Shown here one piece after another: positions 1,381-18,719 of a DNA stretch of 32,000 nucleotides. The notes below the pieces were generated by a model. It searched no databases, was not told the origin of the DNA, and saw nothing but the letters and a program-made list of their open reading frames with translations. The position numbers were made by a program, and so were the translations under genes. Origin of the DNA: Synechococcus sp. A15-28 (GTDB lineage Bacteria > Cyanobacteriota > Cyanobacteriia > PCC-6307 > Cyanobiaceae); the NCBI RefSeq assembly GCF_014280175.1, contig NZ_CP047931.1, positions 2,250,001 to 2,282,000 on the forward strand, in the 5' to 3' direction. The number at the start of each line of letters is the position of its first letter. Within the stretch, counting starts at the first letter, position 1.

Positions 1381-1412
1381 GATCTTTAAAGGGATTAGTG
1401 AATAAAAAGATA

Positions 1413-2156: not shown

Positions 2157-2206
2157 TGCTTAAACAGTGTTGGTTGACATGAAGAAGAAGGTTGTTTAAA
2201 AGCAAA

Positions 2207-3328
2207 CTATTGTGATTCAACTGTGTAACTTTTATCCATTTCTAATTTTGGATAAGTCGAAGATTTTTTGGCAATTCCAAAGGCTGCCAACATCGAAGTA
2301 AATCCACCATTCTTGAACCATCCATAAATACCATCCGGCATCAACACAACCACGAAGATAAACAGACCACCCTGCACAAACAACCAGGCTTCTGGTAGTG
2401 CTTCACTGACAAGGCTTCGTAAGTAGTTCACCAAAACGGCGCCTATAATCGGTCCGATCAATGTTCCACGACCACCAACGGCGACCCAAATCACCATTTC
2501 AATAGACATTGAAATGGCCATGTACTGAGGTGAAACGATACCTGACTGAACTGTATAAAGTGCACCTGAAATGCCAGCCAAGCCACCAGCAACTAAAAAG
2601 ACGATCACTTTAAAAGGAACCGGATTAAACCCACTGAAACGGAGTCGTGCTTCATCATCTCTGATCCCGATCAAAGCATCACCAAAACGACCACTCGTTA
2701 AAAACTTACATAAGAGATAGGCAAACGGGAGTATTATAAGTGTAATCCGATAGAACATAATCTGAGCATCATCGGAGCCCACGATCATTCCGAAGATCTC
2801 CGTTGTGCTCGTCTTAAGGCCATTCGTTCCATTAACAAGCTTCTGCTGACCATTGAAAAAATGGTAAAAAACCATCAAAGAAGCCTGAGTAATAATAGAA
2901 AAATAAACACCCTTGATTCTGTTTCTAAAAATCAAATATCCGACAAGGCCAGCAACCACAGCAGGAATTAACCATATAGCAATCAATGTCCAAGGGAATG
3001 ACCAGAATGGTTGCCAGAAAAACGGAAGGTTATCAACACCATAATTCTCAAAGAACTTAGGCAGACCATTAGCACCAGTGGTGAAATCATTGTTAGTCAC
3101 CAAGAGAAGATGCATGGCTATGGCATAACCACCCAAGGCAAAGAAGATACCTTGACCAAGACTTAGGAGTCCGGTATATCCCCAGATCAGGTCGATACCT
3201 AAAGCAATGATAGCTAAAGAAAAATACCTACCGAAAAGGTTAAGGCGGAACTGTGAAAGAATCGCTGGTAGGACAAAGAATGCGAAGGCGAGAAGAAGCC
3301 AGGGAATCAGCTTTTTGAAAATTTTCAT
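2207..3328 (-). CDS. urtC: urea ABC transporter permease UrtC
   Basis: 373-aa polytopic LivM-like branched-chain-type permease in the urt operon. Confidence 0.88.
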   Translation of the reverse strand: MKIFKKLIPWLLLAFAFFVLPAILSQFRLNLFGRYFSLAIIALGIDLIWGYTGLLSLGQGIFFALGGYAIAMHLLLVTNNDFTTGANGLPKFFENYGVDNLPFFWQPFWSFPWTLIAIWLIPAVVAGLVGYLIFRNRIKGVYFSIITQASLMVFYHFFNGQQKLVNGTNGLKTSTTEIFGMIVGSDDAQIMFYRITLIILPFAYLLCKFLTSGRFGDALIGIRDDEARLRFSGFNPVPFKVIVFLVAGGLAGISGALYTVQSGIVSPQYMAISMSIEMVIWVAVGGRGTLIGPIIGAVLVNYLRSLVSEALPEAWLFVQGGLFIFVVVLMPDGIYGWFKNGGFTSMLAAFGIAKKSSTYPKLEMDKSYTVESQ

Positions 3329-3345
3329 GGTAAAAACCGTAGTAA

Positions 3346-4503
3346 TCAGGATTCGACAGATCGTCCCTTTTGAGGGAACATCCCAGTGGGTTTAAATTGA
3401 AGGAACGTAATAATAAAGATAAATATCAGCACATATGACATACTTGTTGTGGCAAAGAACTCAATCACAGCAGCAGGACCAGCCGGTATATTGTCGAAAG
3501 CAATTAAGATGGCACCAGATCCAATGATGGATTGAATGATGCCAAGCATCATCGAAGCAATCACAGTACCAACAAGATTTCCAACTCCCCCTAGAACAAT
3601 AACCATAAAGCAAGAAACGATATAGGCCGCTCCAAGATTGGGTCCTACAGAGCCAAGCAGAGTGATCGCACTACCAGCAACACCAGCTAAGCCTGATCCA
3701 ATCCCGAAGGTGATGCTGTCGACACTATCAGTGGGAATACCCAAGCAATTGCTCATCTGGCGATTTTGAGTGACAGCACGGATACGTAAACCCCAAACAC
3801 TCTTTGTGAGGAACCATGCTACAAACGCAAGCAGCAGAGCCGAAAGGATAATGATAAAAATTCGAATACCTGGCAACTCAATCCCCGCAATGGAACCCCA
3901 GCTTCCTTGCAACCATTTCGGAGCTGTCACGTCAATATTGCGAGGTCCAAACCAAGCTTTAGAGAGCATCTTAGAAGCTGTCATCGCATTAATTGAAATA
4001 AATCCAATCGCTGATGCCACAACCCAAGCAAAACCTGATAAATAAGGGTAGAAATTAGCACTTTTAAGCTTTGCTGGTGAAAATCGTTGAGAGAAATAAC
4101 CTAGCAATATCGCAATTAATATACCTAAAACCATACTTGTTGAAACACTGCGTATAAATTGAATCAGCACAAGGCTGACACCCCAAGTAGCAAGCAATGT
4201 CTCAAGCGGTCGGCCATATAATTGCCGTATTAATGTTCTTTCCAGAAGAATGCCGACAATTCCAGTAATGACAAAGGCAAAAAATAATGCGAAAAAATAA
4301 TAGAGTTGGAAAACACCCTCGCCAAGAGGCTTGAACATGTTTTGAGTGACAAAAGTCACGTAAGCTCCAACCATCATCAACTCGCCATGAGCGAGATTGA
4401 TTACCCCCATCAAACCAAAAACGATGGCAAGGCCAGTCGCCGCAAGAAGCAAAACTGACCCAATGCTGAGCCCATCAAGGAGCTGTGAAAAAATTAATTC
4501 CAT
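3346..4503 (-). CDS. urtB: urea ABC transporter permease UrtB
   Basis: LivH-like permease. I place the start at ATG 4503 (MELIFSQLLDGLSIGSVLL...) because the longer track ORF (to 4548) would run through the urtA terminator hairpin and T-run at 4517-4545. Confidence 0.88.
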   Translation of the reverse strand: MELIFSQLLDGLSIGSVLLLAATGLAIVFGLMGVINLAHGELMMVGAYVTFVTQNMFKPLGEGVFQLYYFFALFFAFVITGIVGILLERTLIRQLYGRPLETLLATWGVSLVLIQFIRSVSTSMVLGILIAILLGYFSQRFSPAKLKSANFYPYLSGFAWVVASAIGFISINAMTASKMLSKAWFGPRNIDVTAPKWLQGSWGSIAGIELPGIRIFIIILSALLLAFVAWFLTKSVWGLRIRAVTQNRQMSNCLGIPTDSVDSITFGIGSGLAGVAGSAITLLGSVGPNLGAAYIVSCFMVIVLGGVGNLVGTVIASMMLGIIQSIIGSGAILIAFDNIPAGPAAVIEFFATTSMSYVLIFIFIITFLQFKPTGMFPQKGRSVES

Positions 4504-4516
4504 CAGTACATGGGGT

Positions 4517-4545
4517 AAAAAAAAGGCCACAAGTTTATTGTGGCC
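4517..4545 (-). terminator. intrinsic terminator/attenuator immediately after urtA, before urtB
   Basis: On the minus strand the sequence reads GGCCACAA-TAAAC-TTGTGGCC followed by T8 (plus-strand A8 at 4517-4524). It sits 30 nt after the urtA stop and 14 nt before the urtB ATG. This is the classic arrangement that keeps the binding-protein transcript in excess. Confidence 0.65.
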
Positions 4546-4574
4546 CACTATTCAAAGAAATTCAGAAGTAACGA

Positions 4575-5882
4575 TTACATCTTGAACTTTCCGGCATCAG
4601 CACGATCAAGGGTCCAGTCGCACTTGTAGCCTTTGGTCTCAGGAACGTACTGGTTCCAAGTGATAGGAGGAACAGGGGTCTTGCTGTCCCAGAGAATCTC
4701 AAACTGACCATCCTCCTTAGCCTCACCAATCCGCACAGTCTGTGAGATGTGGTGATTGGGATACATCTCAATCGGACCCTGAGGAGCATCGAGCTTAATT
4801 CCGATCAGTGCATTCCGGACAGCATCCAGATCTTCATAAGTGCCAGCCTTCTCAACAGCAGCCTTCCAGAGGTAAACCATGTTGTAAGCCGACTCCATCG
4901 GATCGTTCGTCACACGATCATCACCGTACTCAGCAAGGAATGCTGAATTGAAGGTATCGGAGGCCGAGGATCCGAGGGACATGAAATAGTTCCAGGCCGC
5001 ATAAGTGCCGCCCACATACTCAGGTCCGATCTGACGGATCTCCTCCTCAGCGATGGAGAAGGACATGATCGGATACTTTTCCGGAGTAATTCCTGCTGCC
5101 TTGAACTGCTTGAACAGGGCAACGTTGGAATCACCGTTCAGAGTGTTGATGATGATTCCACCATCAGGGAACTCCTTCTTGATCTTGGCGATGATAGGTG
5201 CCACCTCAGTGTTGCCCAGAGGGATGTAGTCCTCACCGACTGTCTCACCACCCAGGCTCTTGACCTGCTCTTTGATGATGGTGTTAGCAGTTCTGGGGTA
5301 GACGTAGTCAGAACCAACCAAATAAACCTTCTTGCCGTACTTGTCGGCGAACTGCTCAAACAGCCAGTCAACAGCGGGCTCAGCCTGCTGGTTGGGGACA
5401 GCGCCGGTGTAGAAGATGTTCTTGGAGCACTCCTGACCTTCGTACTGAATTGGGTAGAAGAGGAAGTGATCCTTGGCTTCGTAAACCGGAAGCATTGCCT
5501 TCCGACTTGCGGATGTCCAGCCGCCAAACACAACGGCAACCTTATCGGCGTCGATCAGCTTCTGTGACTTCTCCGCGAAGGTAGGCCAATCTGAAGCACC
5601 ATCTTCAGAGGTGTAGGTGATCTTGTAGCTCTTGCCATCGATTTTGACGCCACCGTCGGCATTGATTTCCTTGATCGCCATCTCCTCGACTTCTTTTAGA
5701 GTCGTTTCGGAGATCGCCATCGTTCCGCTAAGGGAATGAAGGATGCCAACTTTGATTTCACCATCAAAATCTGCACCACCACCAGCGGAATCACCACTAT
5801 CTCCGCCACAGGCGGTCATTGTGACTCCCACTGTTGTGGCAGCGAAAGCAGCTAGCAGACGCTTCGTAAACGTTGAATTCAT
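4575..5882 (-). CDS. urtA: urea ABC transporter substrate-binding protein UrtA (probable lipoprotein)
   Basis: LivK-type periplasmic binding protein. ATG 5882 gives MNSTFTKRLLAAFAATTVGVTMTACGG, a signal peptide with a lipobox-like TAC. The track start at 5894 is a GTG four codons upstream. Confidence 0.9.
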   Translation of the reverse strand: MNSTFTKRLLAAFAATTVGVTMTACGGDSGDSAGGGADFDGEIKVGILHSLSGTMAISETTLKEVEEMAIKEINADGGVKIDGKSYKITYTSEDGASDWPTFAEKSQKLIDADKVAVVFGGWTSASRKAMLPVYEAKDHFLFYPIQYEGQECSKNIFYTGAVPNQQAEPAVDWLFEQFADKYGKKVYLVGSDYVYPRTANTIIKEQVKSLGGETVGEDYIPLGNTEVAPIIAKIKKEFPDGGIIINTLNGDSNVALFKQFKAAGITPEKYPIMSFSIAEEEIRQIGPEYVGGTYAAWNYFMSLGSSASDTFNSAFLAEYGDDRVTNDPMESAYNMVYLWKAAVEKAGTYEDLDAVRNALIGIKLDAPQGPIEMYPNHHISQTVRIGEAKEDGQFEILWDSKTPVPPITWNQYVPETKGYKCDWTLDRADAGKFKM

Positions 5883-5929
5883 GAAGAAAGACACACGGTG
5901 GATGAGACCGCCATGAGGGCGACATTAGA

Positions 5930-9408: not shown

Positions 9409-11118
9409 ATGCCCTACCGCATCTCCCGCCAGGCCTACGCCGAGACCTACGGACCCACCACCGGCGACCGGGTTCGCCTGGCCGACACCGAGCTGATCCT
9501 CGAAGTCGAGAAGGATTTCACCGTGTACGGCGACGAGGTGAAGTTCGGCGGCGGCAAGGTGATTCGCGATGGCATGGGCCAGTCCCAGACCCCTCGAGCC
9601 GAGGGCGCCGTCGACACGGTGATCACCAATGCTCTGATCCTGGATTGGTGGGGCATCGTCAAAGCCGATGTCGGACTGAAAGACGGCCGGATCGTGGGCA
9701 TCGGCAAAGCCGGCAACCCCGACACCCAGGAAGGGGTGACCATCGTGGTGGGCCCCGGCACCGAGGCGATCGCTGGGGAAGGTCACATCCTCACGGCCGG
9801 TGGCATCGACACCCACATCCACTTCATCTGCCCCCAGCAGATCGAAACAGCTCTGGCCAGTGGCGTCACCACCCTGATGGGAGGCGGCACTGGACCAGCC
9901 ACCGGCACCAACGCCACCACCTGCACCCCCGGCGCCTTCCACATCGGGCGAATGCTCCAGGCAGCGGAAGGCCTGCCGGTGAATCTGGGCTTCTTCGGCA
10001 AGGGCAACGCCAGCACCCCTGAAGCCCTGGAAGAACAGGTGCGCGCCGGCGCCTGCGGCTTGAAGCTGCATGAAGACTGGGGCACCACACCGGCAACGAT
10101 CGATGCCTGCCTGTCGGTGGCCGACCGGATGGATGTGCAGGTGTGCATCCACACCGACACCTTGAATGAAGCCGGCTTCGTGGAAGACACGATCGCCGCC
10201 ATCAAGGGACGCACCATTCACACCTTCCACACCGAAGGTGCCGGCGGCGGCCATGCACCGGACATCATCAAGATCTGCGGCAAAGCGAATGTGCTGCCAA
10301 GCAGCACCAACCCCACCCGGCCCTACACCCGCAACACGCTTGAGGAGCACCTCGACATGCTGATGGTGTGCCACCACCTCGATCCGAAGATCCCGGAAGA
10401 CGTGGCTTTTGCCGAATCGCGGATTCGCCGCGAAACGATCGCCGCCGAAGACATCCTTCACGACCTGGGCGCCTTCTCGATCATCGCCAGCGACTCCCAG
10501 GCCATGGGGCGCGTGGGCGAAGTGATCACCCGCACCTTCCAGACCGCCCACAAGATGAAGGTGCAGCGCGGTGCACTGCCGGAAGACTCCAACCGCAATG
10601 ACAACTATCGGCTGAAGCGCTACATCGCCAAGGTGACAATCAACCCCGCTCTTGCCCATGGCATCAGCAGCGAGGTGGGCTCGATCGAAACCGGCAAGCT
10701 CGCCGATCTCGTGCTGTGGAAGCCGGGCTTCTTCGGCATTCGCCCGGAACTGGTGGTGAAGGGCGGTTCGATCGTCTGGGCCCAGATGGGCGACGCCAAC
10801 GCCTCGATTCCCACCCCCGGCCCGGTGCACGGCCGGCCGATGTTCGGCGCCTTCGGCAAAGCCCTTGCCCCCAGTTGTCTTACCTTCGTGAGCGCAGCGG
10901 CGATGGATGCCGACATCCAACGTCAGCTGGGACTGGAGCGCACCTGCATGGCGGTGAAGGAGACCCGCAGCGTCGGCAAGAGCGCCCTCAAGCTGAATGC
11001 AGCGCTGCCCAAGGTGAGCGTGGATCCGCAGACCTATGAGGTGTTCGCCGACGGTGAGCTGCTCACCTGTGAGCCCGCCGAGGTGCTGCCCCTCGCCCAG
11101 CGCTACCTGCTGCTTTGA
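9409..11118 (+). CDS. ureC: urease subunit alpha UreC
   Basis: 569 aa with the active-site motifs [17 protein letters not shown] and MVCHHLD. Confidence 0.97.
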
Positions 11119-11223: not shown

Positions 11224-11237
11224 GTAGCAACTGCTAC
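11224..11237 (+). promoter_or_regulatory. consensus NtcA-type box GTA-N8-TAC within a 7+7 inverted repeat
   Basis: TGTAGCA-AC-TGCTACA spans 11223-11238, with perfect 7-bp arms and an exact GTAGCAACTGCTAC core. It lies in the ureC/DUF4278 intergenic region, 85 nt upstream of the DUF4278 ATG. Confidence 0.45.
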
Positions 11238-11240
11238 AGA

Positions 11241-11321
11241 CGTTCACCTTGCTTATTGAAGCAAGGCGCAGTTCGACTCAGGCCATGGAACGGGGACCTG
11301 AGCTTGCTTCGAGGAACCACC
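11241..11321 (+). promoter_or_regulatory. structured 5' leader, candidate glutamine-riboswitch-like (glnA / Downstream-peptide family) element
   Basis: CGTTCACC begins at 11241. Hairpin 1 is CCTTGCTT-ATTG-AAGCAAGG (11247-11266). Hairpin 2 is CTCAGG-(14 nt)-CCTGAG (11277-11302). Its loop contains GAACG (11288-11292), complementary to CGTTC (11241-11245), so a pseudoknot is possible. A second CTTGCTT copy (11303-11309), next to GAGGAA and the ATG, can pair alternatively with AAGCAAG. No covariance model was run. Confidence 0.35.
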
Positions 11322-11489
11322 ATGACGACTCTTCTCTACAGAGGTCAGGCCTACCAGCAGGTCAAGGAGCCTGCACAACAGCAGGGCGTGCAACTCACCT
11401 ACCGCCGCAACGTTTATCAGTCCCGCCAGGCTGATGTGCGTCAGGCCCGTGTTCAACTCACTTACCGCGGCGTCAGCTACCTGCGCTGA
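11322..11489 (+). CDS. DUF4278-family small protein (55 aa)
   Basis: MTTLLYRGQAYQQ...VQLTYRRNVYQ...VQLTYRGVSYLR carries three L-[LT]-Y-R-[GR]-x-x-Y repeats, typical of cyanobacterial DUF4278. The track ORF start at 11256 adds 22 residues with no similarity. Confidence 0.7.
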   Translation: MTTLLYRGQAYQQVKEPAQQQGVQLTYRRNVYQSRQADVRQARVQLTYRGVSYLR

Positions 11490-11500
11490 TACCTGTTGGT

Positions 11501-12175
11501 TCAGGCCACAAGTCGGTTAAGCACGGGCAATTCCAGCAGTTCATCACGCCACTGCTGAGCCCACAGATCCTGACTGCGTTCGTAGAGCTCCATCAGCTCT
11601 TCGACCGCACCTGGGCGGAAATCAACCCGCAGATCCAGCAACGGAAATGCCGCTTCGCCGCTCACCTGCAGAGCGGCGGATGTGCAGCTTGATGCGCGTT
11701 GGTCGCCACCAGCCTGCTCTCCTGCCTGCAGGGCCGTCATCAAACGACGGCCCAGTTTCCAGTTGGGATCACTGGTGAGAAACGTCTGTTCCATCGCCTC
11801 CAGCACCACTTCGCCAGCCAGGCAATTTCCCGCAACCGAAAGGTTGGGATGGTGCCGATGACCCGCCCATCCGCCGCACTCAACTCCAGTCCAGCAAGCA
11901 GTCCGGCCATCAAGATCGATCAGATGGAACTGGCGCCAATCCCGTTGGGGGTCATCCAGCAGAAGGCTGTTCAGCACATCCTGCGCATCCGCATGATGTT
12001 CAAGACGCTCCAGGCCGCAAATTCCCAGATAAGGATTGGTGTGGGCTTGGGTTGCAACGGCACCTACTCCAGATCGGATGTGGGGAACAGTGGAGCCCAC
12101 AGCCAGGTGACAGGTCGCCACGGCAACGCCGAAACGACCGTTGTTGGGATCACGCGCCAGGATTGAGAAGGTCAA
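11501..12175 (-). CDS. DUF1028-family (Ntn-hydrolase-fold) protein
   Basis: It begins (TTG)-TFSILARDPNNGRFGVAVATCHLAVGSTVPHIRSGVGAVATQA, the hallmark DUF1028 N-terminus with Thr2 as the putative N-terminal nucleophile. The TTG start overlaps the upstream stop (TTGA). Confidence 0.8.
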   Translation of the reverse strand: MTFSILARDPNNGRFGVAVATCHLAVGSTVPHIRSGVGAVATQAHTNPYLGICGLERLEHHADAQDVLNSLLLDDPQRDWRQFHLIDLDGRTACWTGVECGGWAGHRHHPNLSVAGNCLAGEVVLEAMEQTFLTSDPNWKLGRRLMTALQAGEQAGGDQRASSCTSAALQVSGEAAFPLLDLRVDFRPGAVEELMELYERSQDLWAQQWRDELLELPVLNRLVA

Positions 12176-13452
12176 GACAGCTCGCGATCCAAACGCTGCA
12201 GAGTCCCCAGCAAGACGGCAGCCCCAGCCCAGCAGTGCTCGTCACTGGTGAATTCCTTGGATGAGTGGCTAAGCCCACCACGGCTGGGGACGAAAATCAT
12301 TCCCATCGGCCAGCGACGTCCGATCTCCTGCGCATCGTGACTGGCACGGCTGGGAAGGTGGCTATGCGACAACCCCAGATCCTCTGCAGCAGAAACGATC
12401 GCTGCCATCACTCCATCCGCTGCAGCTGTGGGTTCCACCTCAAATTGAGGTTCCAACTGGATCGGGCATCCGGTTTCGGCACCGATCCGCTCCACCTGCT
12501 GCATCAACTCAGCCACCAACTGATCGAGCACAACTGAATTCACATCCCGGAGGTCAACGGTCAGCGCCACTGAGCCAGGCACCACATTGGCGGCGTTGGG
12601 CCAGACCTCGAGTCGTCCGACTGTGGCAACGGGATCACCTGGGTGCTGTCTGGCCATCGTCTCCACCGCCAGCACGATCCGGGACGCCGCCACCAAAGCG
12701 TCTTGCCGCAGCTTCATCGGCGTGGTGCCGGCGTGGTTCGGCTGACCATCCACCTGGATGCTGAAACGGCGTTGTCCCACAACGCCCTCCACCACACCGA
12801 TGGCGTCACCGCGTTGCTCGAGCACGCCTCCCTGTTCCACATGGAGCTCGAGAAAAGCAGCACAGGCGTCGTCCGCCCGACGTGCTGAGACCAGCGATGG
12901 CCAGTGACCACCGATACGAGCGAGATTGTCCTCGATCGGTTCCCGATTGCTGGTGGCATAGGCCTTGGGGTCACAGGAAGCCGTACCGGCCATGCCCTTG
13001 CACCCGACCATCGTCGATTCCTCATCGGCGAAGGCGATCAACTCGAGATCGTGCTGAAGACGAATGCTGTTGTCCTGCAGGGAGCGACAAACTTCAAGAC
13101 CTGCCAAAACCCCCAACACACCGTCAAAACGACCACCGGTGGGAACGGTGTCGAGGTGGGAACCGGTCATCAGTGCTGGGCGATCCGGATCCAACCCCTG
13201 AAGCCGACCGATCAGGTTGCCCGCCGTATCGATCCGAACCTGAAGGCCAGCCTCGTTCATCCATCGGGCCAGCAAGGAACGTCCCGCAACGTCCTCAGTC
13301 GAGAAACCCCGTCGACAGACGCTGCCATCGGGCTGCAGCCCAATGGCAGCCATTTCAGCCAAGGAGTGCATCAGACGCTCACGGTTGGGTCGAATGCCCA
13401 CCTGTGCTTTCGACCGAGCAGTGACCTGGCGAGTGGTCAGGAGGGACGGCAA
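12172..13452 (-). CDS. M20-family hydantoinase/carbamoylase-type amidohydrolase (allantoate amidohydrolase / N-carbamoyl-L-amino-acid hydrolase / beta-ureidopropionase group)
   Basis: Contains GSHLDTVPTGGRFDGVLGVLAGLEV, FADEES and a C-terminal SHDA, the metal-ligand motifs of the AmaB/AllC group. Confidence 0.82.
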   Translation of the reverse strand: MPSLLTTRQVTARSKAQVGIRPNRERLMHSLAEMAAIGLQPDGSVCRRGFSTEDVAGRSLLARWMNEAGLQVRIDTAGNLIGRLQGLDPDRPALMTGSHLDTVPTGGRFDGVLGVLAGLEVCRSLQDNSIRLQHDLELIAFADEESTMVGCKGMAGTASCDPKAYATSNREPIEDNLARIGGHWPSLVSARRADDACAAFLELHVEQGGVLEQRGDAIGVVEGVVGQRRFSIQVDGQPNHAGTTPMKLRQDALVAASRIVLAVETMARQHPGDPVATVGRLEVWPNAANVVPGSVALTVDLRDVNSVVLDQLVAELMQQVERIGAETGCPIQLEPQFEVEPTAAADGVMAAIVSAAEDLGLSHSHLPSRASHDAQEIGRRWPMGMIFVPSRGGLSHSSKEFTSDEHCWAGAAVLLGTLQRLDRELS

Positions 13453-13547
13453 TGCAGTGGCCTTCAGATCAAAAGATCAGATCACCATCGCCGCAGCGAC
13501 CCAAACGGCCTGTCGTCAATGCGACGTTTTAACCCTCACCAAAGAAT

Positions 13548-15572
13548 TCAAACGGGCATCAGCACCCGCCACCCGAGGCGATCGGCCTGCTCACGAGCCT
13601 GGGCTGGCACATCGGCCGCTACAAACATCCGATGCAGCATCTGGACACCCAGGAGGTGGTTGATGACGGCATCCATCTGAACCCGCTCGGCGTCGGTGGT
13701 GGCAGGGTCGTCGTGGCGCGCAAACAAGGCACGCACGCCCTCTTTGCTCAACAACCCAGCCGCATCAATCGCTTCATCACTCAGGTAGTCATCAGCCAAC
13801 TGCTTCATTTGCGCCCACTTCTCGGGCTCGGTGTGGGCCGGGGGCGCCAGGAAGGCAAATTTTTCGCGCTTGTAAAGCACCTCCGGCAGCAGACCCGCCA
13901 TGGCCTCCCGCAGCACATATTTCTCAGTTTTTCCCTTGATCCGCAGCTCCGGAGGCACTTGTACCGCCGCAGCCGCCAGATGGTGATCCAGGAAAGCCGG
14001 CCGTGCCTCCATGGAGTTGGCCATGTCGACGCGATCACCTCCCCAGGTGAGGATCTGGCCTTCCAACATTGTTTTGATCCAGACGTACTGAGCCTTGTCG
14101 AGGGCATGGCGACCATCGAGTTGCTGGGGATTCAACTGCTCAGCAATGGCTTTACCTGGCGAGTACTCCACCAACGCCTGACGGTGCTCGTCAGCCAGCA
14201 GATCCGGCACCAGCGGCGCGCAGGCCAGCCAGGGCTGCAGACAGCTGGGGGTGAAGCCCACCACGGCATCAAGATCGGGATCATCCACCTGATCAGCCGC
14301 CAGCATTGCTCCCTGCACCAGGGAATTGTTGGTCTGCAGCAGAGACTCCCAATCATGGCGATCGCTCTGCGACAGGTCCTCCAGACCATGGAGGAACATG
14401 TCACGCCGGAACGCGGGATAGCCACCGAACAGCTCGTCTGACCCTTCCCCAGTCATCACGACTTTGTAGTCGACACTATTGACATGGCGACTCATTAAGT
14501 ATTTGGCCACAGCCAAGGTGTTGTAGATCGTGCGCTCGGTATGCCAGAGCGTTTGTTCCATGTGGCCGTACAACTCACGACCCGACAGACGCATGACGTC
14601 CTGCTCGGCACCGGTGGCCTCCGCCATCTCCGCAGCAATGGGTGTTTCGTCGTAGCGCGCATCATCGAATCCGATCGTGAACGCCTTGACGGGACCCTGA
14701 CTCACCGCCGAAGCAAGACCGAGGATCGAACAACTGTCGATTCCGCCTGAGAGATAACAACCCACGGGCACGTCGGCCACCATCCGCATCTCCACCGCTT
14801 CCAGCAGAGCAGCACGAACATTGGCGATGTGATCAGCCTCCGTGAGGGTGCTGTCCCGCTGATCCAAACGTGGAAAATCGACATCCCAGTAGGTCGACTC
14901 CGACACCTCCAGCCGGTCACTCCTGCGCTGCACCTTCAGCACATGACCAGGCTGAACTTGGTGCACCCCGGCGAAGGCGGTCGTTCCCGGGACCATGGTC
15001 TGCATCAACTGATGAAAGAGACCCTCCGACGTGAAGCGTCGCTCCACGGCCTGGTGAGCAAACAGCACCTTCAACTCGGAGCCGAACACCAACCCCTCCG
15101 GCGTCATCGTCCAGTACTGGGGCTTGATGCCGAAGCGATCCCTCACCAGATAGAGACAGTCATCCGCCGCATCAAACAGAGCAAAGGCGAATTCCCCCCG
15201 CAGCAGAGGCAACGTGGACTCGAGACCCTGCCGTTGATACAGGCGCAACAAAATCTCGGAATCACTCTTCGAGGAGAAACGCACTCCCTGGGCGGTGAGA
15301 TCAGCACGGATGCGCTGAAAGTCGTAGAACTCGCCGTTGTGCGCCATCAGCACCTGCCGGTCGTTGCTGAGAAACGGCTGACGTGCCCGGGATTCGTTCA
15401 GATCAATAATCGACAACCGGGCATGACAGAAGCCGACACCGGCTGCGTCGAGGCATTCCACACCGAAACCATCCGGTCCGCGATGGGACTGGATGGCCGC
15501 CATGTTGACCAACAGCTGGCGATCCAACGTCTGATGACGATCCGCCAGAAACACACCTCCGATTCCGCACAT
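13548..15572 (-). CDS. asparagine synthetase (glutamine-hydrolysing)-like amidotransferase, 674 aa
   Basis: Has the N-terminal MCGIGG (Cys2 Ntn glutaminase nucleophile) and the PP-loop SGGIDS (CYLSGGIDSCS). It is longer than E. coli AsnB. Confidence 0.85.
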   Translation of the reverse strand: MCGIGGVFLADRHQTLDRQLLVNMAAIQSHRGPDGFGVECLDAAGVGFCHARLSIIDLNESRARQPFLSNDRQVLMAHNGEFYDFQRIRADLTAQGVRFSSKSDSEILLRLYQRQGLESTLPLLRGEFAFALFDAADDCLYLVRDRFGIKPQYWTMTPEGLVFGSELKVLFAHQAVERRFTSEGLFHQLMQTMVPGTTAFAGVHQVQPGHVLKVQRRSDRLEVSESTYWDVDFPRLDQRDSTLTEADHIANVRAALLEAVEMRMVADVPVGCYLSGGIDSCSILGLASAVSQGPVKAFTIGFDDARYDETPIAAEMAEATGAEQDVMRLSGRELYGHMEQTLWHTERTIYNTLAVAKYLMSRHVNSVDYKVVMTGEGSDELFGGYPAFRRDMFLHGLEDLSQSDRHDWESLLQTNNSLVQGAMLAADQVDDPDLDAVVGFTPSCLQPWLACAPLVPDLLADEHRQALVEYSPGKAIAEQLNPQQLDGRHALDKAQYVWIKTMLEGQILTWGGDRVDMANSMEARPAFLDHHLAAAAVQVPPELRIKGKTEKYVLREAMAGLLPEVLYKREKFAFLAPPAHTEPEKWAQMKQLADDYLSDEAIDAAGLLSKEGVRALFARHDDPATTDAERVQMDAVINHLLGVQMLHRMFVAADVPAQAREQADRLGWRVLMPV

Positions 15573-15581
15573 CAGTTCGCC

Positions 15582-16769
15582 TCAGATCACATCCATCACG
15601 CGCTCGGCACGATTCACCATGCAGGTGAGCAGTGCCATGCGCACAAACACCGCCCCACGCGCCTGGCTGAAATACCAGTTGTGCGGCGTGTCATCGAGAC
15701 AGGTGCTCAGCTCAGGACCCCGGGCCAGGGGATGCAACACGATCGCCTCCGGCTTGAACGGCAGATCCCGGGTGAGACGAAATCCACCGCCGTGCACCTC
15801 GTAGCTGTCGCCAACCCAGGCAATCGCATTGATGTAGACGACATCCAGATCGGGAATCTCAGCAGCCAGATCTGAACTGCAGCGGATGGACATCCCGCTT
15901 GCTTCCAGTTCCTCCAGCTGGCCTGGATCAAACAAAGGCGCTTCCGACTCCATCTCGGGCGCATGGATCACCACCACCTCCTCCAGGATCTGGGGGAATT
16001 TGCTGAGGATCCGCAGCAGCGAACGCACGGTGCGCATCCGCGACGGCAAACCGATCACCCCGATGCGGATCCGATCCTTCGGGGAGTCCTCTTTCGAAGC
16101 AAGGCTTGGACGCCATTTGAACATCGTGTAGAGATCCGCCATCGCCTGTGTCGGATGCTCATCAATGCCATTACCGGCATTGATGATCGGAATCCGCAGG
16201 GTGGAACTCATGGCGTACACGGCCTCCGGATTGCTGTCGCGCAGCACCACGCAGTCGCCGTAGTTGTTGAACATGTGCGCCACGTCTTCGAGCGACTCCC
16301 CCTTGGCGATGCCGGTGGTGCTGCGATCGGTGATGTTGATCGAATCACCGCCGAGGCGATGCCAGGCGCTGTCGAAGGAAAGGCGTGTGCGCGTGCTGGG
16401 CTCGTAGAACGCGTTGATCAGGATCTTGCCGGTGAGCGGCGTGTTGTGCCGGCAGTAACGGTCTGGGTTGCTCTCGAATTTCGCCGCCAGTCGAAACAAC
16501 TGGAGCAGGGTTTCAGCACGAAATGCCTGAATCGACACCACGTGTTGATCGACAAGATCCACCAACGGCTCACCGTCTTCAGCGATTGCGGCCAAAAGCT
16601 CCTGCGGCTGATTGTGGCCGAACACATCAGGACCCATCGGCTGGAAGCGGAGCGGCGCCGAAGCCTCCTCGATCACGGCTGTGTGGGGTTGTGCCATAAG
16701 CATTTGCATCAACACCCGATTTGCCAGATCGCGTGATGTGCCATGAATCACATCATCCTTCGCTAACAA
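15582..16769 (-). CDS. aspartate/ornithine carbamoyltransferase-fold protein, atypical (unknown second substrate)
   Basis: Carries the carbamoyl-phosphate motifs STRTR and HPTQ and the ATCase-like HPLAR. The ATCase aspartate-loop motif (TRVQKER) is replaced by INAIAWVG. The start is uncertain: TTG 16769, or ATG 16709/16703/16697. Its stop lies 9 nt before the AsnB-like ATG. Confidence 0.75.
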   Translation of the reverse strand: MLAKDDVIHGTSRDLANRVLMQMLMAQPHTAVIEEASAPLRFQPMGPDVFGHNQPQELLAAIAEDGEPLVDLVDQHVVSIQAFRAETLLQLFRLAAKFESNPDRYCRHNTPLTGKILINAFYEPSTRTRLSFDSAWHRLGGDSINITDRSTTGIAKGESLEDVAHMFNNYGDCVVLRDSNPEAVYAMSSTLRIPIINAGNGIDEHPTQAMADLYTMFKWRPSLASKEDSPKDRIRIGVIGLPSRMRTVRSLLRILSKFPQILEEVVVIHAPEMESEAPLFDPGQLEELEASGMSIRCSSDLAAEIPDLDVVYINAIAWVGDSYEVHGGGFRLTRDLPFKPEAIVLHPLARGPELSTCLDDTPHNWYFSQARGAVFVRMALLTCMVNRAERVMDVI

Positions 16770-16873
16770 CGAACCAGCACCCCTGACCAGCTTAAAAGAA
16801 GTTCTTTATACAAATAACTGGCAAATAGTTCGAATGAATACCAAATCCGCCGCAAATTGTTCACTTTGAACAT

Positions 16874-17020
16874 TCACCAGACGCGTCCATTGCGCCACTC
16901 AAACCACCAAATCACCAGCAATGCGAGCACAGAACAGACGAGCGCCACCTGGCTTCCCACCAGGACCAGACCGAACCAGTGTTGATCCACCAGAACCGTG
17001 AGCAGCAACGCATTGGCCAT
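16874..17020 (-). CDS. unannotated 48-aa hydrophobic ORF immediately downstream of the symporter
   Basis: An ATG 5 nt after the symporter stop gives MANALLLTVLVDQHWFGLVLVGSQVALVCSVLALLVIWWFEWRNGRVW*. It is too short for the ORF track. GC-rich codons and a hydrophobic profile are the only support. Confidence 0.35.
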   Translation of the reverse strand: MANALLLTVLVDQHWFGLVLVGSQVALVCSVLALLVIWWFEWRNGRVW

Positions 17021-17025
17021 GGCGT

Positions 17026-18456
17026 TCACACCCCCTCTTGCAGACGATTGAAATCAAACCCTTCCGGCTGCCAGCGGCTGCCCACCACCATCACGACAGC
17101 CGAAACGGCTGCGGAGAACACTGCCGCGCAATAGGGAGCAATCAGAACGTAAGCCGATAGTCCGACGGCACTGCCGGCTGCCATGGCGACGATCGCTGCC
17201 CAACGATTGGCAGAAGACCAGTAGAGACCGCAAGCCACAGGCCAGACCGTGGAGGCCACCAACGCACCGGTGAAGAACAGCACCGACGCCAACGAATCCA
17301 GTCGCGGCCAGGACAGGGCCAGGGTGAGAACAGACAGGCCAACCACCATCTGCCGGGCCGCCTGCTTGAGCTGTGCATCGCTCGCCTGAGGGCGCAGCAG
17401 ACGGAAATAGACGTCTTCCGCCAGCAGATCCGCCGTGGACGCCAACAGCGAATCCAGGGTGGAGGTGAGTGACGCGAAGACCACCACAAACACCAGTGCC
17501 GCCCCACCAGCCCCCAGAAGATCGGCCGCCATTACAGGGAACACCATGTTCACCTGCTCCAGCGGCAGGTCCCTGGCCAGCGCCACCAGACCGATCGATC
17601 CCGTCACCAGGGGGATACTCATCCAGGCCAATCCCCCCAAGACAAACGAGGTCATCACCACACTGCGCCGGCTGGCGAACACCCGCGACCACCAGATGTT
17701 GTTGTGAAAGACTTCACCCATCGAGAACAGGGCGGAATTCCAGGCGATCAGCAGACCAGCCGGAAGCAAGAGATCCAGCCGGTCAGGGTGCGTACTGATC
17801 AAGCGAGCATGCACCACCGGCATCGGGAACTGACGGAACGCCAGCACCGCCACCACCGCCAGCAACACCATGATCAGCAGCGACTGGATGAAATCGGTTC
17901 CGATCACTGCCCGCATGCCGCCGAACAGGGTGTAAACGGTGGCGACGCCGATCACCACCACCATGCCTACGTGGTAATCGAAGCCGGAGAGCGCCTGAAG
18001 CAACAGACCGGCCCCCATGGCCTGGGTCATCAGAAAACCGAGGGTGTACACAGCGGTGATCACCATGAACACCCACCACGCCAGGCGCCCGTAACGCAAC
18101 CGGATGAAATCGCCACTGGTGCGGCCATGCGGCATCAGCTGCTTGATCCGCACGGCCAGCGGCGCGAACAGGATCAAGCCCAGACCGGCCAGGGCATAAC
18201 TGAACATGCCCCAAAGACCAGTCCTGTAGCCGAATTCCGGAGCCAGCAGTGTGGTGTTTCCGGTCACCCAGGAGGCCATCAGCGTGGCCGTGCTCAACGC
18301 CAACCCGATGTTGCGTCCGGCCAGCATGTAGTCGTCGGCATCTCCTTTACCGCGGCGGCCCCAGACGATCCCCAAGGCGATCCACAGCACGGAAAACAAC
18401 ACAACCAGGGCCCAGGCGATGCCAGGCGCCAGAAAAGGTGCGGCGTCAGCAGGCAT
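17026..18456 (-). CDS. sodium:solute symporter (SSS) family transporter
   Basis: Polytopic protein of about 476 aa with the SSS-like N-terminal region DDYMLAGRNIGLALSTATLMASWVTGNTTLL. The start is either ATG 18456 (MPADAAPF) or GTG 18474. Confidence 0.85.
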   Translation of the reverse strand: MPADAAPFLAPGIAWALVVLFSVLWIALGIVWGRRGKGDADDYMLAGRNIGLALSTATLMASWVTGNTTLLAPEFGYRTGLWGMFSYALAGLGLILFAPLAVRIKQLMPHGRTSGDFIRLRYGRLAWWVFMVITAVYTLGFLMTQAMGAGLLLQALSGFDYHVGMVVVIGVATVYTLFGGMRAVIGTDFIQSLLIMVLLAVVAVLAFRQFPMPVVHARLISTHPDRLDLLLPAGLLIAWNSALFSMGEVFHNNIWWSRVFASRRSVVMTSFVLGGLAWMSIPLVTGSIGLVALARDLPLEQVNMVFPVMAADLLGAGGAALVFVVVFASLTSTLDSLLASTADLLAEDVYFRLLRPQASDAQLKQAARQMVVGLSVLTLALSWPRLDSLASVLFFTGALVASTVWPVACGLYWSSANRWAAIVAMAAGSAVGLSAYVLIAPYCAAVFSAAVSAVVMVVGSRWQPEGFDFNRLQEGV

Positions 18457-18571
18457 CGACCGACCCCCGATCACGCCAGTGCAGATGGCCCTGAATGATC
18501 ATCGCCACCGTTGCCAGGGTCACCGCAGCACCGAGGGCAAAGACCAGTCCAGCCCAGAGATTGTCATCCAA
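18446..18571 (-). CDS. unannotated 41-aa single-TM ORF overlapping the symporter start
   Basis: TTG 18571, preceded by GAGGAG 7 nt upstream, gives (M)DDNLWAGLVFALGAAVTLATVAMIIQGHLHWRDRGSVDAC*. Its last codons contain the symporter ATG (GATGCCTGCTGA). Confidence 0.35.
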   Translation of the reverse strand: MDDNLWAGLVFALGAAVTLATVAMIIQGHLHWRDRGSVDAC

Positions 18572-18705
18572 AGCGAATCTCCTCTTCAGCAGATCTCAGA
18601 CAAGCAAATCGCGGTGTTCTCGAGCTTGCATTCACGAATAACAAGTCGCTGGCGCTACCCAAATCACAGGCTGTCAGTGCACTGATGCCTTCAATCTCGA
18701 AATGT

Positions 18706-18719
18706 GTAGCAATCACAAC
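18706..18719. promoter_or_regulatory. NtcA-like half-consensus box GTAGCAATCACAAC (GTN10AC)
   Basis: It lies in the divergent intergenic region between the symporter operon and the ATP-grasp gene. It shares the TGTAGCAA half-site with the box at 11224. No TAN3T sits at the canonical 22-nt spacing on either strand. Confidence 0.2.

Follow-up and report, generated by a model that had tools for sequence, protein, structure and literature searches.

A conserved carbamoyltransferase-amidotransferase gene cluster of picocyanobacteria and marine Gammaproteobacteria: a candidate ureido-amide module

Seven genes of Synechococcus sp. A15-28 belong to a gene unit whose core (a transporter, microproteins, an ATCase-like carbamoyltransferase and an AsnB-like amidotransferase) is conserved across phyla; an M20 hydrolase is facultative and a DUF1028 protein is confined to cyanobacteria. 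Tentatively, and at somewhat less than even chances, we propose that the products of the cluster make, take back up and degrade an N-carbamoyl amino-acid amide rich in nitrogen, for which the osmolyte Nα-carbamoyl-L-glutamine 1-amide is the candidate. We infer the substrates, product, transport direction and physiological role from gene content, conservation, active-site motifs, a conserved NtcA-like box and published transcript responses to salinity, all of which are directly supported. The cluster itself is already known; new here are the conserved core, the accessory genes, the non-PyrB pocket, the NtcA-like box, the salinity response and the ggpS/ggpP context.

Layout and distribution of the cluster

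The window is a stretch of 32,000 nucleotides (NZ_CP047931.1, positions 2,250,001 to 2,282,000), to which all coordinates refer. ORF analysis confirmed the seven co-directional minus-strand ORFs originally predicted within 11501-18571: DUF1028 (11501-12175), M20 (12172-13452), AsnB-like (13548-15572), ATCase-like (15582-16769), a mini-ORF (16874-17029), SSF symporter (17026-18474) and a second mini-ORF (18446-18571). With the start codons discussed here, the features and their basis are:

18446-18571, minus strand: 41-aa single-helix membrane microprotein (ORF and tblastn)
17026-18456, minus strand: DUR3-type SSF symporter, 476 aa (PF00474 and structure match)
16874-17020, minus strand: 48-aa single-helix microprotein ending ...EWRNGRVW (ORF conservation)
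16698-16873, minus strand: AT-rich gap, 176 nt, probable internal promoter (conserved NtcA-like box)
15582-16697, minus strand: ATCase-like carbamoyltransferase "PyrB2", 371 aa (PF02729 and PF00185)
13548-15572, minus strand: AsnB-family glutamine-dependent amidotransferase, 674 aa (PF00733, PF13522, PF13537 and TIGR01536)
13453-13547, minus strand: 95-nt gap between the AsnB-like and M20 genes (weak hairpins; WH8102 expression difference)
12172-13452, minus strand: M20 N-carbamoyl-L-amino-acid amidohydrolase-type enzyme, 426 aa (TIGR01879 and NF006771)
11501-12175, minus strand: DUF1028 Ntn-hydrolase-type protein, 224 aa (PF06267)

The tight junctions of the original prediction are borne out: the symporter ATG (18456) falls within the 3' end of the 41-aa ORF, the 48-aa ORF starts (ATG 17020) 5 nt past the symporter stop, 9 nt separate the ATCase-like gene from the AsnB-like gene, and the TTG start of DUF1028 overlaps the M20 stop as TTGA. 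Its domain assignments proved right in Pfam and equivalog profile searches, and the set matches no characterised pathway, as it had stated. The composition is host-like (GC 0.60, against 0.61-0.65 in the ure and ATP-grasp flanks); the cluster is nonetheless part of the flexible genome.

The core gave about 490 genome hits (491), mostly in marine Gammaproteobacteria, and its order is accessory membrane protein, DUR3-like symporter, ~40-aa microprotein, ATCase-like and AsnB-like gene. Of the 491 hits, 80 genome loci were retained; in every one of them, and in metagenome loci too, the last four genes are arranged in one order on one strand. Wherever the flank is long enough, the symporter gene is the one just upstream of the ATCase-like gene, Prochlorococcus contigs excepted, and the AsnB-like gene directly follows the ATCase-like gene in every locus of sufficient length. 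Because the flanking genes vary, the module is self-contained. Beyond these genes, only the M20 family has a wide association with the core: NF006771-subfamily proteins adjoin it in 18 of 29 lineages, with no fixed side or strand. In cyanobacteria the DUF1028 gene comes after the M20 gene without exception; none of the proteobacterial loci contains it. The gene order holds in about 45 picocyanobacterial contigs plus CC9902, CB0101 and HK05, but the cross-phylum unit is smaller than seven genes. The adjacency to urease applies to one Synechococcus group and is not seen in CB0101, HK05, A. feldmannii or Prochlorococcus.

Although it had been called uncharacterised, the cluster has not gone unnoticed. 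It corresponds to Syn-eCAG_003/Pro-eCAG_007, shown for WH8102 by Doré et al. 2023 (ISME J 17:720, PMC10119275), and to Cyanorak clusters CK_00001890, 55201, 1891, 1822, 1892 and 1893, with the gene names ureP/DUR3, membrane protein, pyrB2, asnB, pydC/amaB and Ntn hydrolase. About one fifth of HLII Prochlorococcus carry it; Doré et al. place the Prochlorococcus eCAG "notably in the Red Sea" (PMC10119275).

Proteins and the proposed pathway

The ATCase-like protein has the PF02729 and PF00185 domains and a conserved N-terminal extension of ~50 aa, and it is 61-67% identical to proteobacterial members. Its homologues are 369-373 aa long, which makes ATG 16697 (371 aa) the most likely start. STRTR, HPTQ and HPLAR are retained. 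The claim that it lacks the aspartate loop is right in that Ala/Ala stands at the positions of E. coli R229 and Q231 and 4 residues are missing (YINAIAW where a Y-x-T-R-x-Q segment is expected), but the protein still has the 80s-loop Lys and an equivalent of R167. As judged from the alignment, the carbamoyl-phosphate site is intact and the amino-acid side-chain pocket is altered; Ala/Ala at these positions would fit a side chain without a carboxylate. The scores fall below the PyrB equivalog cut-offs (194.8 vs 236.95; 186.6 vs 263) and the gene is a second copy in RS9907 and WH8102; for these reasons and the loss of R229/Q231 it is not the housekeeping pyrB, let alone the sole one.

The AsnB-like protein matches PF00733, PF13522 and PF13537, and TIGR01536 well above its cut-off (425 bits, cut-off 267). 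It carries the motifs MCGIGG, HARLSIID, HNGEFYD and LSGGIDS. Since Cys2 and the PP-loop SGGIDS are retained, it is expected to be an ATP-consuming amidation enzyme, not a catabolic one.

The M20 protein exceeds the cut-offs of TIGR01879 (387 bits, cut-off 204) and NF006771 (406, cut-off 399); it scores highest, with 428 bits, against ErtE (N-carbamyl-L-glutamate amidohydrolase), short of that model's cut-off of 520. The DUF1028 protein (PF06267, 220 bits) has a Thr directly after the initiator Met; its sole solved relative, 2imh, has no assigned function.

The predicted Na+ symporter is an SSF member (PF00474, 100 bits), more precisely a predicted DUR3-like protein of the urea-proton symporter type: DUR3 is the closest solved structure at 121 bits, aligning over residues 12-438, and the next SSF member scores 42 bits. 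This fits a urea-like substrate. A DUR3-like transporter could also simply take up urea, a possibility that runs counter to the proposal. The 41-aa ORF has tblastn matches of 49-95% in cyanobacterial loci and no Pfam match in the Pfam search; it matches the C-terminal anchor of a signal-peptide protein of 114-235 aa that occupies the same position in proteobacteria, such longer counterparts occurring in 80 of 86 loci. A microprotein ORF also separates the symporter and ATCase-like genes (83 of 85 loci); its core is ~40 aa long and it ends in the motif [KR]D[WFY]xxxx[LI]W-stop. Cyanobacterial matches to the 48-aa protein are 43-100%. Being conserved at the protein level, both mini-ORFs are more than chance ORFs.

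In the proposed pathway, the ATCase-like enzyme would use carbamoyl phosphate to carbamoylate the alpha-amino group of a neutral amino acid, for which glutamine is the preferred candidate. The AsnB-like enzyme would adenylate the free carboxylate and amidate it with ammonia from glutamine. The DUR3-like symporter and the two single-helix microproteins may recapture or import the substituted urea. The two hydrolases would mirror the two synthetic steps: DUF1028 would take off the amide and the M20 carbamoylase the carbamoyl group, returning the nitrogen as ammonia. The original prediction's two hypotheses, breakdown and synthesis of a carbamoyl compound, are thus probably both partly true, the core synthesising and the hydrolases degrading. 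Synthetic and degradative genes in one apparent operon would make a futile cycle unless activity is controlled post-transcriptionally.

Carbamoyl-glutamine amide is a known bacterial compatible solute. To our knowledge, its biosynthetic genes have never been identified, and a literature search found no paper assigning genes to it. The only producer we know of is Ectothiorhodospira marismortui, which is absent among the 80 loci kept. Some carriers (HK05, Vulcanococcus, Thiothrix nivea) are presumably euryhaline or freshwater-type strains, which runs counter to an osmolyte.

Regulation, salinity and competing readings

The AT-rich gap is present as predicted, but given ATG 16697 it spans 16698-16873, not 16770-16873. 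It is the probable site of an internal promoter, with an NtcA-like box, GTATTCATTCGAAC, at 16828-16841, a conserved element, TATAAAGAA, at about 16802-16810, and a palindrome, GTTCA-AAG-TGAAC, at 16859-16871; no Rfam match or significant fold was found in it. Allowing at most one mismatch to GTAN8TAC between -170 and -110, the box occurs in 39 of 48 distinct picocyanobacterial sequences (9 perfect), mostly at -142 to -149 relative to the start codon; shuffled controls averaged 10.5 and did not exceed 19. The picocyanobacterial enzyme genes appear, from this motif, to have their own NtcA-type promoter, in line with the predicted nitrogen link, and the metabolite pool would therefore be coupled to salinity as well as to nitrogen status. 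The box suggests nitrogen-stress control, under which making a solute with four nitrogens would be odd.

Two published datasets connect the cluster to salinity. In WH8102 exposed to +0.125 M NaCl for 2 h, SYNW2454 and SYNW2453 rose by +0.78 and +0.62 log2, which places them 4th and 6th by size of increase among 102 genes at 1% FDR; the increase was +0.87 for the glycine-betaine genes and +0.43 for ggpS (PMC2874817 Additional file 10). NtcA-type genes (nitrate transporter, nirA, cynS) also rose, so the salt effect may be indirect. In RS9907, three consecutive cluster genes and ggpS are among the salinity-regulated genes at 20 °C (51 in the main text), and the ATCase-like gene is in a high-salt-induced soft cluster; the AsnB-like and M20 genes are in soft cluster 4 with ureC, urtA and glsF, which declines at 50 PSU, 28 °C (PMC12834511). 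The salinity fold changes are modest. In the Prochlorococcus contigs, ggpS (762 bits, cut-off 569), in some cases accompanied by ggpP, immediately precedes the unit, and a GH13 gene is near; GG synthesis in a Red Sea HLII isolate has been viewed as a salinity adaptation (bioRxiv 10.1101/549816).

The 95-nt gap at 13453-13547 is a possible point of separate expression control: in the WH8102 salt shock the two genes upstream pass 1% FDR and the M20 gene does not (PMC2874817 Additional file 10). Its region has weak terminator-like hairpins at 13570-13551 and 13504-13477; the gap itself shows no significant fold (z = -0.5).

The main rival, which we consider rather unlikely, is nitrogen scavenging, in which urea or a ureido compound from outside would enter through the symporter, ammonia would be freed by the M20 and DUF1028 enzymes, and the ATCase-like enzyme would run in reverse to carbamoyl phosphate. 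It is the first hypothesis of the original prediction, matches the "recycling complex nitrogen forms" idea of Doré et al. and the enrichment of the eCAG in N- and P-depleted waters (PMC10119275), and would suit the DUR3-like symporter, the NtcA-like box, the RS9907 co-clustering, the ure/urt genes that adjoin the cluster in many subcluster 5.1 genomes and the sigma-54-like motifs upstream of it in some Idiomarinaceae. However, it leaves no breakdown role for an ATP- and glutamine-consuming AsnB-type enzyme with an intact glutaminase site, which has the tightest link to the ATCase-like gene. Idiomarinaceae have the core without any hydrolase within 8 kb, Prochlorococcus contigs keep the four enzymes without the transporter, so that substrate import is not required, and carbamate kinase is absent from the cluster. 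Transcarbamylase equilibria, moreover, favour ureido formation.

The same synteny and active-site evidence could also, though improbably, reflect a different product: a guanidino compound, made by carbamoylating an amine and converting the ureido to a guanidino group with the PP-loop amidotransferase, or a non-osmotic signal or small-molecule nitrogen store, for which NtcA-type control would be apt. PP-loop chemistry on ureido groups is known in related families, GMP synthetase and argininosuccinate synthetase acting on ureido carbonyls. AsnB-family enzymes, however, are known for activating carboxylates, an M20 carbamoylase and an Ntn amidase suit carbamoyl and amide removal better than guanidine breakdown, and the salinity links would be coincidence. 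Alternative pyrimidine biosynthesis or salvage, with PyrB2 making carbamoyl-aspartate and PydC acting on ureidopropionate-type intermediates, was the guess of Doré et al. 2023 (PMC10119275) and agrees with the Cyanorak names and with true ATCases being the solved structures closest to PyrB2, but is highly improbable, as PyrB2 is without both aspartate beta-carboxylate ligands and below all PyrB equivalog cut-offs, the same genomes have a normal pyrB, no linkage to dihydroorotase or other pyr genes was found among the loci examined, and the AsnB-like enzyme, DUF1028 and transporter would have no role.

Comparison with known systems

The Syn-eCAG_003 work (Doré et al. 2023) is a distribution study, its functional guess drawn from annotation names only; the active-site change, proteobacterial core, microproteins, NtcA-like box, salinity response and ggpS neighbourhood are absent from it. 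The ATCase-like protein and the PyrB catalytic chain have the same fold (~35% identity to solved ATCases) and share STRTR, HPTQ, HPLxR, the 80s-loop Lys and the R167 equivalent. Unlike PyrB, it has the R229/Q231 to Ala changes, the 4-residue deletion, the ~50-residue N-terminal extension and sub-cut-off scores, and its gene is a second copy of patchy distribution without a PyrI partner.

DUR3 of plants, fungi and algae is by far the best solved SSF match to the symporter (all others score at most 42 bits), with nearly full-length alignment. In contrast to it, the cluster protein is bacterial, ~230 residues shorter, always accompanied by two single-helix proteins and genetically tied to biosynthetic enzymes, not to urease or urea amidolyase. 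AmaB (PDB 3n5f) is the structure closest to the M20 protein, with which it shares the TIGR01879 family above cut-off; the M20 protein is below the equivalog cut-offs for ErtE, AllC and allantoate amidohydrolase and, unlike AmaB and ErtE, has no hydantoinase or ergothioneine genes nearby.

The NAGGN pathway reportedly pairs the AsnO amidotransferase with Ngg (Sagot et al. 2010 PNAS). The Ngg (GNAT/ATP-grasp) gene is absent from the cluster, whose N-blocking step would instead be carbamoylation by the ATCase-like enzyme, and the AsnO equivalog model gives the AsnB-like protein 294 bits (cut-off 570). The proposed pathway would nevertheless resemble NAGGN synthesis, in which an N-blocked glutamine derivative becomes an uncharged osmolyte when an AsnB-family glutamine-dependent enzyme caps its alpha-carboxylate, and in which, as in the cluster, a hydrolase gene often follows the gene pair.

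Organization and distribution of the cluster

Seven co-directional ORFs on the minus strand lie between ureC/DUF4278 and the ATP-grasp/alpha-E/transglutaminase trio, in the arrangement originally predicted. The tight junctions between them were found as first described, and the domain assignments of the original prediction were all upheld by Pfam and NCBIfam.

Genes of the cluster, in window coordinates
11501-12175, minus strand: DUF1028 protein, 224 aa
12172-13452, minus strand: M20 protein, 426 aa
13548-15572, minus strand: AsnB-like protein, 674 aa
15582-16769, minus strand: ATCase-like protein, 395 aa by the ORF rule
16874-17029, minus strand: small ORF, 48 aa from the ATG at 17020
17026-18474, minus strand: SSF symporter, ATG at 18456
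18446-18571, minus strand: small ORF, 41 aa

The GC content of the cluster (0.60) resembles that of the ure and ATP-grasp flanks, consistent with the host-like composition noted earlier. One boundary has been revised. Alignment with 369-373-aa homologues places the ATCase-like start at ATG 16697, so the AT-rich gap, previously delimited as 16770-16873, spans 176 nt (16698-16873). The 48-aa ORF is followed, directly 3' of its stop codon, by a palindrome, GTTCA-AAG-TGAAC (16859-16871, minus strand), which may act as an operator or form a small hairpin; many relatives of subcluster 5.1 have GTTC-N5-GAAC variants at the equivalent site.

The seven-gene order recurs in other cyanobacterial genomes and in metagenomes. 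The full series of mini-ORF, symporter, mini-ORF, ATCase-like, AsnB-like, M20 and DUF1028 genes is found in Synechococcus CC9902 with the same neighbors as in the window, in CB0101 and HK05, in the sponge symbiont Aphanocapsa feldmannii, and in about 45 metagenomic picocyanobacterial contigs with ATCase-like identities of 74-99%. Adjacency to urease, part of the original description, holds in one group of carriers and fails elsewhere, CB0101 and HK05 having the cluster at a different genomic site. Cluster look-ups added UW179A, MIT S1220, CC9616, CB0205, A15-44, A15-60, A18-25c, NOUM97013, LA31, CBW1107 and Vulcanococcus as carriers, and a low-GC Prochlorococcus lineage has the ATCase-like, AsnB-like, M20 and DUF1028 genes without the transporter. 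Some carriers show signs of decay, with the AsnB-like gene broken into two ORFs in A. feldmannii (homologous locus L006, 11099-13228 in its own coordinates) and DUF1028 shortened to 131 aa in one variant of the Prochlorococcus contigs (locus L139, 9201-9596).

Relatives of the ATCase-like protein extend well beyond cyanobacteria, with 491 matches in 185,579 species genomes (one genome per species); among the matches listed, proteins of Idiomarina, Thiothrix, Pseudoalteromonas, Emcibacter and others are 61-67% identical to it. The best 80 of the 491 come from marine Gammaproteobacteria (Idiomarinaceae, Kangiella, Pleionea, the Pseudoalteromonas piscicida group and Ketobacter), and in all 80 the order and strand of the symporter, ATCase-like and AsnB-like genes are constant. 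Of 29 lineages, 18 have near this core an M20 gene of NCBIfam subfamily NF006771, to which the M20 of the window also belongs, placed on either strand and to either side; in the loci examined no other family shows a broad link to the core. DUF1028 is limited to cyanobacterial loci. The module therefore consists of a five-gene conserved core, a facultative M20 and a cyanobacterial DUF1028. Further conserved partners in proteobacteria were sought and rejected, the neighbors being unrelated (Hsp20, peptidases, aconitase, helicase, integrase). The cluster is a real, conserved module of the flexible genome.

The urea genes nearby have features of their own. The urtABCDE-like ABC transporter genes (window 634-5894, minus strand) have a GC content of 0.42-0.44 in urtB-E and 0.515 in urtA, versus 0.60-0.65 for the ure genes and the cluster, and UrtA is only 63.5% identical to that of CC9902; UreC is 90-100% identical across related contigs. 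The low GC and divergence suggest that the operon for the urea ABC transporter was replaced by a foreign one. An Rfam match to the Helicobacter 5' ureB sRNA (RF02514, 166 bits; window 9564-9850, minus strand), antisense inside ureC, is most likely due to the conserved coding sequence of urease and not to a real sRNA.

Predicted enzymes and transporter

The ATCase-like protein scores 138 bits against PF02729 and retains STRTR, HPTQ, HPLAR, the 80s-loop Lys and the R167 equivalent. Its carbamoyl-phosphate motifs EPSTRTRLSF, DEHPTQ and VVLRD (the R105 equivalent) are invariant in 13 family members. The ligands of the aspartate beta-carboxylate (E. coli R229/Q231 in Y-x-T-R-x-Q) are missing, replaced by Ala/Ala and followed by a 4-residue deletion: YVTRIQKERF of the M. 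jannaschii ATCase (2rgw) aligns with YINAIAWV and then a 4-residue gap. Across the family the NAIAW segment hardly varies: N and I are invariant, and the second A and W are conserved at 90% or more. The protein also falls under the PyrB equivalog cut-offs (TIGR00670, 194.8 vs 236.95; NF002032, 186.6 vs 263). Nor is the gene a single housekeeping pyrB. RS9907 has another ATCase gene, peg.265, besides the ATCase-like peg.2887, a second copy is likewise present in WH8102, and three ATC/OTC-family genes each are reported for WH8102, CC9902, CC9605, WH7805 and RS9917 (Schriek et al. 2007), where the ATCase-like gene was placed among the OTC-family members. The family, with only 491 matches in 185,579 species genomes, also lacks the spread of a housekeeping gene. 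A role as sole housekeeping pyrB/asnB was rejected, the ATCase-like protein departing from PyrB in aspartate ligands, equivalog scores and copy number. The database annotation "pyrB2 / pyrimidine biosynthesis" is probably wrong, and database names for the cluster are probably misleading.

The AsnB-like protein is predicted from its motifs to be an AsnB-type glutamine-dependent amidotransferase: MCGIGG, HARLSIID, HNGEFYD and LSGGIDS supply the Cys2 nucleophile, glutaminase motifs and PP-loop. It passes TIGR01536 (425 bits, cut-off 267). Among structures, a hydroxyamidotransferase and AsnB come closest to it.

Two hydrolases complete the set. The M20 protein, with catalytic (PF01546) and dimerization (PF07687) domains, passes TIGR01879 for hydantoinase/carbamoylase-family amidases (387 bits vs a cut-off of 204) and by these scores belongs to the N-carbamoyl-L-amino-acid amidohydrolase family, its substrate being a prediction. 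The best-scoring model is ErtE, N-carbamyl-L-glutamate amidohydrolase (428 bits, under the cut-off of 520); the AllC model gives 259 bits, under its cut-off of 598. The DUF1028 protein covers PF06267 end to end (220 bits, profile positions 1-193 of 193) and begins M-T-F-S, the Thr directly after the initiator Met being the putative Ntn nucleophile. It has one solved relative. A literature search on DUF1028, Idiomarina osmolytes and ureido solutes returned nothing relevant.

The symporter carries the SSF domain PF00474 and is specifically DUR3-like by sequence comparison: residues 12-438 align with solved urea-proton symporters at 121 bits, vs 42 or less for other solved SSF proteins. Urea transport is putative. 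Two small proteins accompany it. A 114-235-aa protein with a signal peptide, a domain of about 100 aa and a C-terminal helix is encoded upstream in 80 of 86 loci, and the 41-aa ORF of the window matches the anchor helix of this longer proteobacterial protein. Between the symporter and the ATCase-like gene, 83 of 85 loci have a single-helix ORF of about 40 aa ending in [KR]D[WFY]xxxx[LI]W; the 48-aa ORF of the window ends in EWRNGRVW. The ~100-aa domain of the proteobacterial accessory protein (loci L001, 8021-8452; L002, 7941-8435; L004, 8006-8449) has no Pfam match and a weak PKD-like hint (E = 0.06), and the cyanobacterial counterpart is the helix only, a 41-49-aa ORF.

Regulatory sequences and published expression

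Upstream of the cluster the window has no perfect NtcA box; comparative analysis was required to bring out a conserved imperfect one. NtcA-like boxes (GTAN8TAC, at most 1 mismatch) occur at -170 to -110 in 39 of 48 distinct picocyanobacterial sequences, against 10.5 on average and at most 19 in the shuffle control. Counted from the ATCase-like start, most stand at -142 to -149, and nine are perfect; that of the window, with 1 mismatch, is at 16828-16841. A conserved TAAAGA-like element follows 17-20 nt after the box, a spacing slightly short for an NtcA promoter. Sigma-70 consensus promoters were absent across 11-19 kb of the window. A riboswitch or structured leader in either gap was rejected: there was no Rfam match at E up to 5, and the folding z values were -0.5 and +0.18.

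Other control sites lie nearby or in other loci. A perfect NtcA box, GTAGCAACTGCTAC (11224-11237), is followed by a Glutamine-II riboswitch (RF01704, 72.9 bits), the two together spanning window 11224-11302 on the plus strand and preceding the DUF4278 small ORF (11256-11489, plus strand) between ureC and the cluster. This sole perfect box of the window belongs to the glutamine riboswitch/DUF4278 gene, not to the cluster. The divergent region that separates the transporter genes from the ATP-grasp operon has two weaker 1-mismatch boxes (18645-18658 and 18706-18719; equivalent positions in L087-L145). Relative to the symporter start they are conserved at about -264 and -204 in 5.1-type loci only, being absent in the CB0101/HK05 type. 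Among 80 proteobacterial loci, 13 have sigma-54-like -24/-12 motifs (e.g. TGGCTCCCATACTGCA) ahead of the module (shuffle mean 1.6), 140-230 nt upstream of the accessory ORF in L042, L045, L051, L068, L069, L075, L080 and others. These motifs hint at NtrC-type nitrogen control in Idiomarinaceae.

Published data link the genes to salinity. In WH8102, named as a cluster carrier in the Fig. S8C legend of Doré et al. 2023 (PMC10119275), 102 of 2,520 genes responded at 1% FDR to a salt shock that was mild (+0.125 M NaCl for 2 h; Mao et al. 2010, PMC2874817).

Increases in the WH8102 salt shock (PMC2874817)
SYNW2454, putative aspartate carbamoyltransferase: log2 +0.78
SYNW2453, putative asparagine synthetase: log2 +0.62
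SYNW1913/1914, glycine-betaine synthesis: log2 +0.87
SYNW1281, ggpS: log2 +0.43

SYNW2454 and SYNW2453 showed the 4th and 6th largest increases, on which the authors did not comment; the nitrate transporter, nirA and cynS rose too (PMC2874817), and the salt effect on the two genes may be indirect. Their orthology to the cluster genes is taken from annotation and adjacency, the table of Schriek et al. and the Fig. S8 legend of Doré et al., the WH8102 protein not being directly shown in the cluster look-ups. In RS9907 acclimated to 18-50 PSU, the consecutive peg.2887 (ATCase-like), peg.2886 (AsnB-like) and peg.2885 (M20), along with ggpS, are in a list of genes (51 according to the main text) regulated by salinity at 20 °C (PMC12834511). 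The direction of regulation was read from soft-cluster assignments: peg.2887 is in the high-salt-induced cluster with a membership of 0.50 (ggpS, 0.84), and peg.2886 (0.70) and peg.2885 (0.86) are in cluster 4 alongside ureC, urtA and glsF (PMC12834511). The salinity fold changes of the cluster genes are small. In Prochlorococcus, the four enzyme genes are directly downstream of ggpS (TIGR02398, 762 bits, cut-off 569), with ggpP (PF09506) too in some variants and a GH13 gene downstream; this neighborhood counts as one observation because all those contigs are one population. The Prochlorococcus eCAG occurs "notably in the Red Sea" (Doré et al. 2023, PMC10119275), and for an HLII isolate from the Red Sea, GG synthesis has been interpreted as a salinity adaptation (bioRxiv 10.1101/549816).

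Proposed function and comparison with known systems

The original prediction called the cluster uncharacterized. The literature search found no functional study of it, and it had already been flagged, as Syn-eCAG_003/Pro-eCAG_007 (Doré et al. 2023, PMC10119275). The reading we prefer is that carbamoylation by the ATCase-like enzyme and amidation by the AsnB-like enzyme would convert a neutral amino acid to an uncharged ureido-amide. The M20 protein would remove the carbamoyl group and the DUF1028 Ntn hydrolase the amide, each reversing one synthetic step, and a DUR3-type carrier would be suited to a substituted urea. A candidate product is N-carbamoyl-L-glutamine 1-amide, which appears in compatible-solute papers only as a solute of Ectothiorhodospira marismortui; the papers found give no genes for it, and Ectothiorhodospira is not represented among the best 80 of the 491 ATCase-like matches. 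The general scheme is tentative, quite possible if short of probable, and this specific product is doubtful, because of the NtcA-type and cluster 4 signals, the possibly indirect salt effect and the small fold changes. It is similarly unlikely that the whole picture is correct, namely a reversible osmolyte and nitrogen store built by the carbamoyltransferase and amidotransferase, dismantled by the carbamoylase and Ntn amidase, and retrieved by a so far undescribed bacterial DUR3-type symporter of three components (transporter and two microproteins) in marine picocyanobacteria and about 490 other bacterial species.

Scavenging of nitrogen from an external ureido compound or urea, which the putative NtcA-type control and the cluster 4 behavior in RS9907 fit at least as well as they fit the ureido-amide scheme, is somewhat unlikely. 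Synthesis of another product by the same enzymes is improbable. The published suggestion of "an alternative pyrimidine biosynthesis pathway" (Doré et al. 2023, PMC10119275) is very improbable.

Nitrogen budgeting and the ability to cope with salinity shape the niches of marine Synechococcus and Prochlorococcus, both of them major primary producers; the cluster is carried by most warm-water Synechococcus and by Red Sea-type Prochlorococcus, and its expression shifts with salinity. A concrete, testable hypothesis is now at hand. If the ureido-amide scheme is true, a compatible solute that has been known since 1991 would gain its genes, picocyanobacterial physiology would come to include a nitrogen reserve or nitrogen-rich solute, and a widespread orphan module of marine Gammaproteobacteria would be explained. 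It would also extend the ATCase fold to a new class of substrate, provide a first function for DUF1028 and reveal a microprotein-dependent bacterial DUR3-type transporter. Scavenging, if true, would point to an unrecognized organic nitrogen source in oligotrophic seas.

Two features of the ureido-amide scheme have parallels in known systems. Genes for synthesis and breakdown lie side by side in cyanobacteria in the pairs cphA/cphB and ggpS/gghA, and the synthesis of NAGGN by AsnO follows a logic parallel to that proposed here. The cluster differs from the NAGGN system in that its AsnB-like protein falls under the AsnO equivalog cut-off (TIGR03104, 294 bits vs 570), and the Ngg acetyltransferase/ligase gene neighbors the core in no locus examined.
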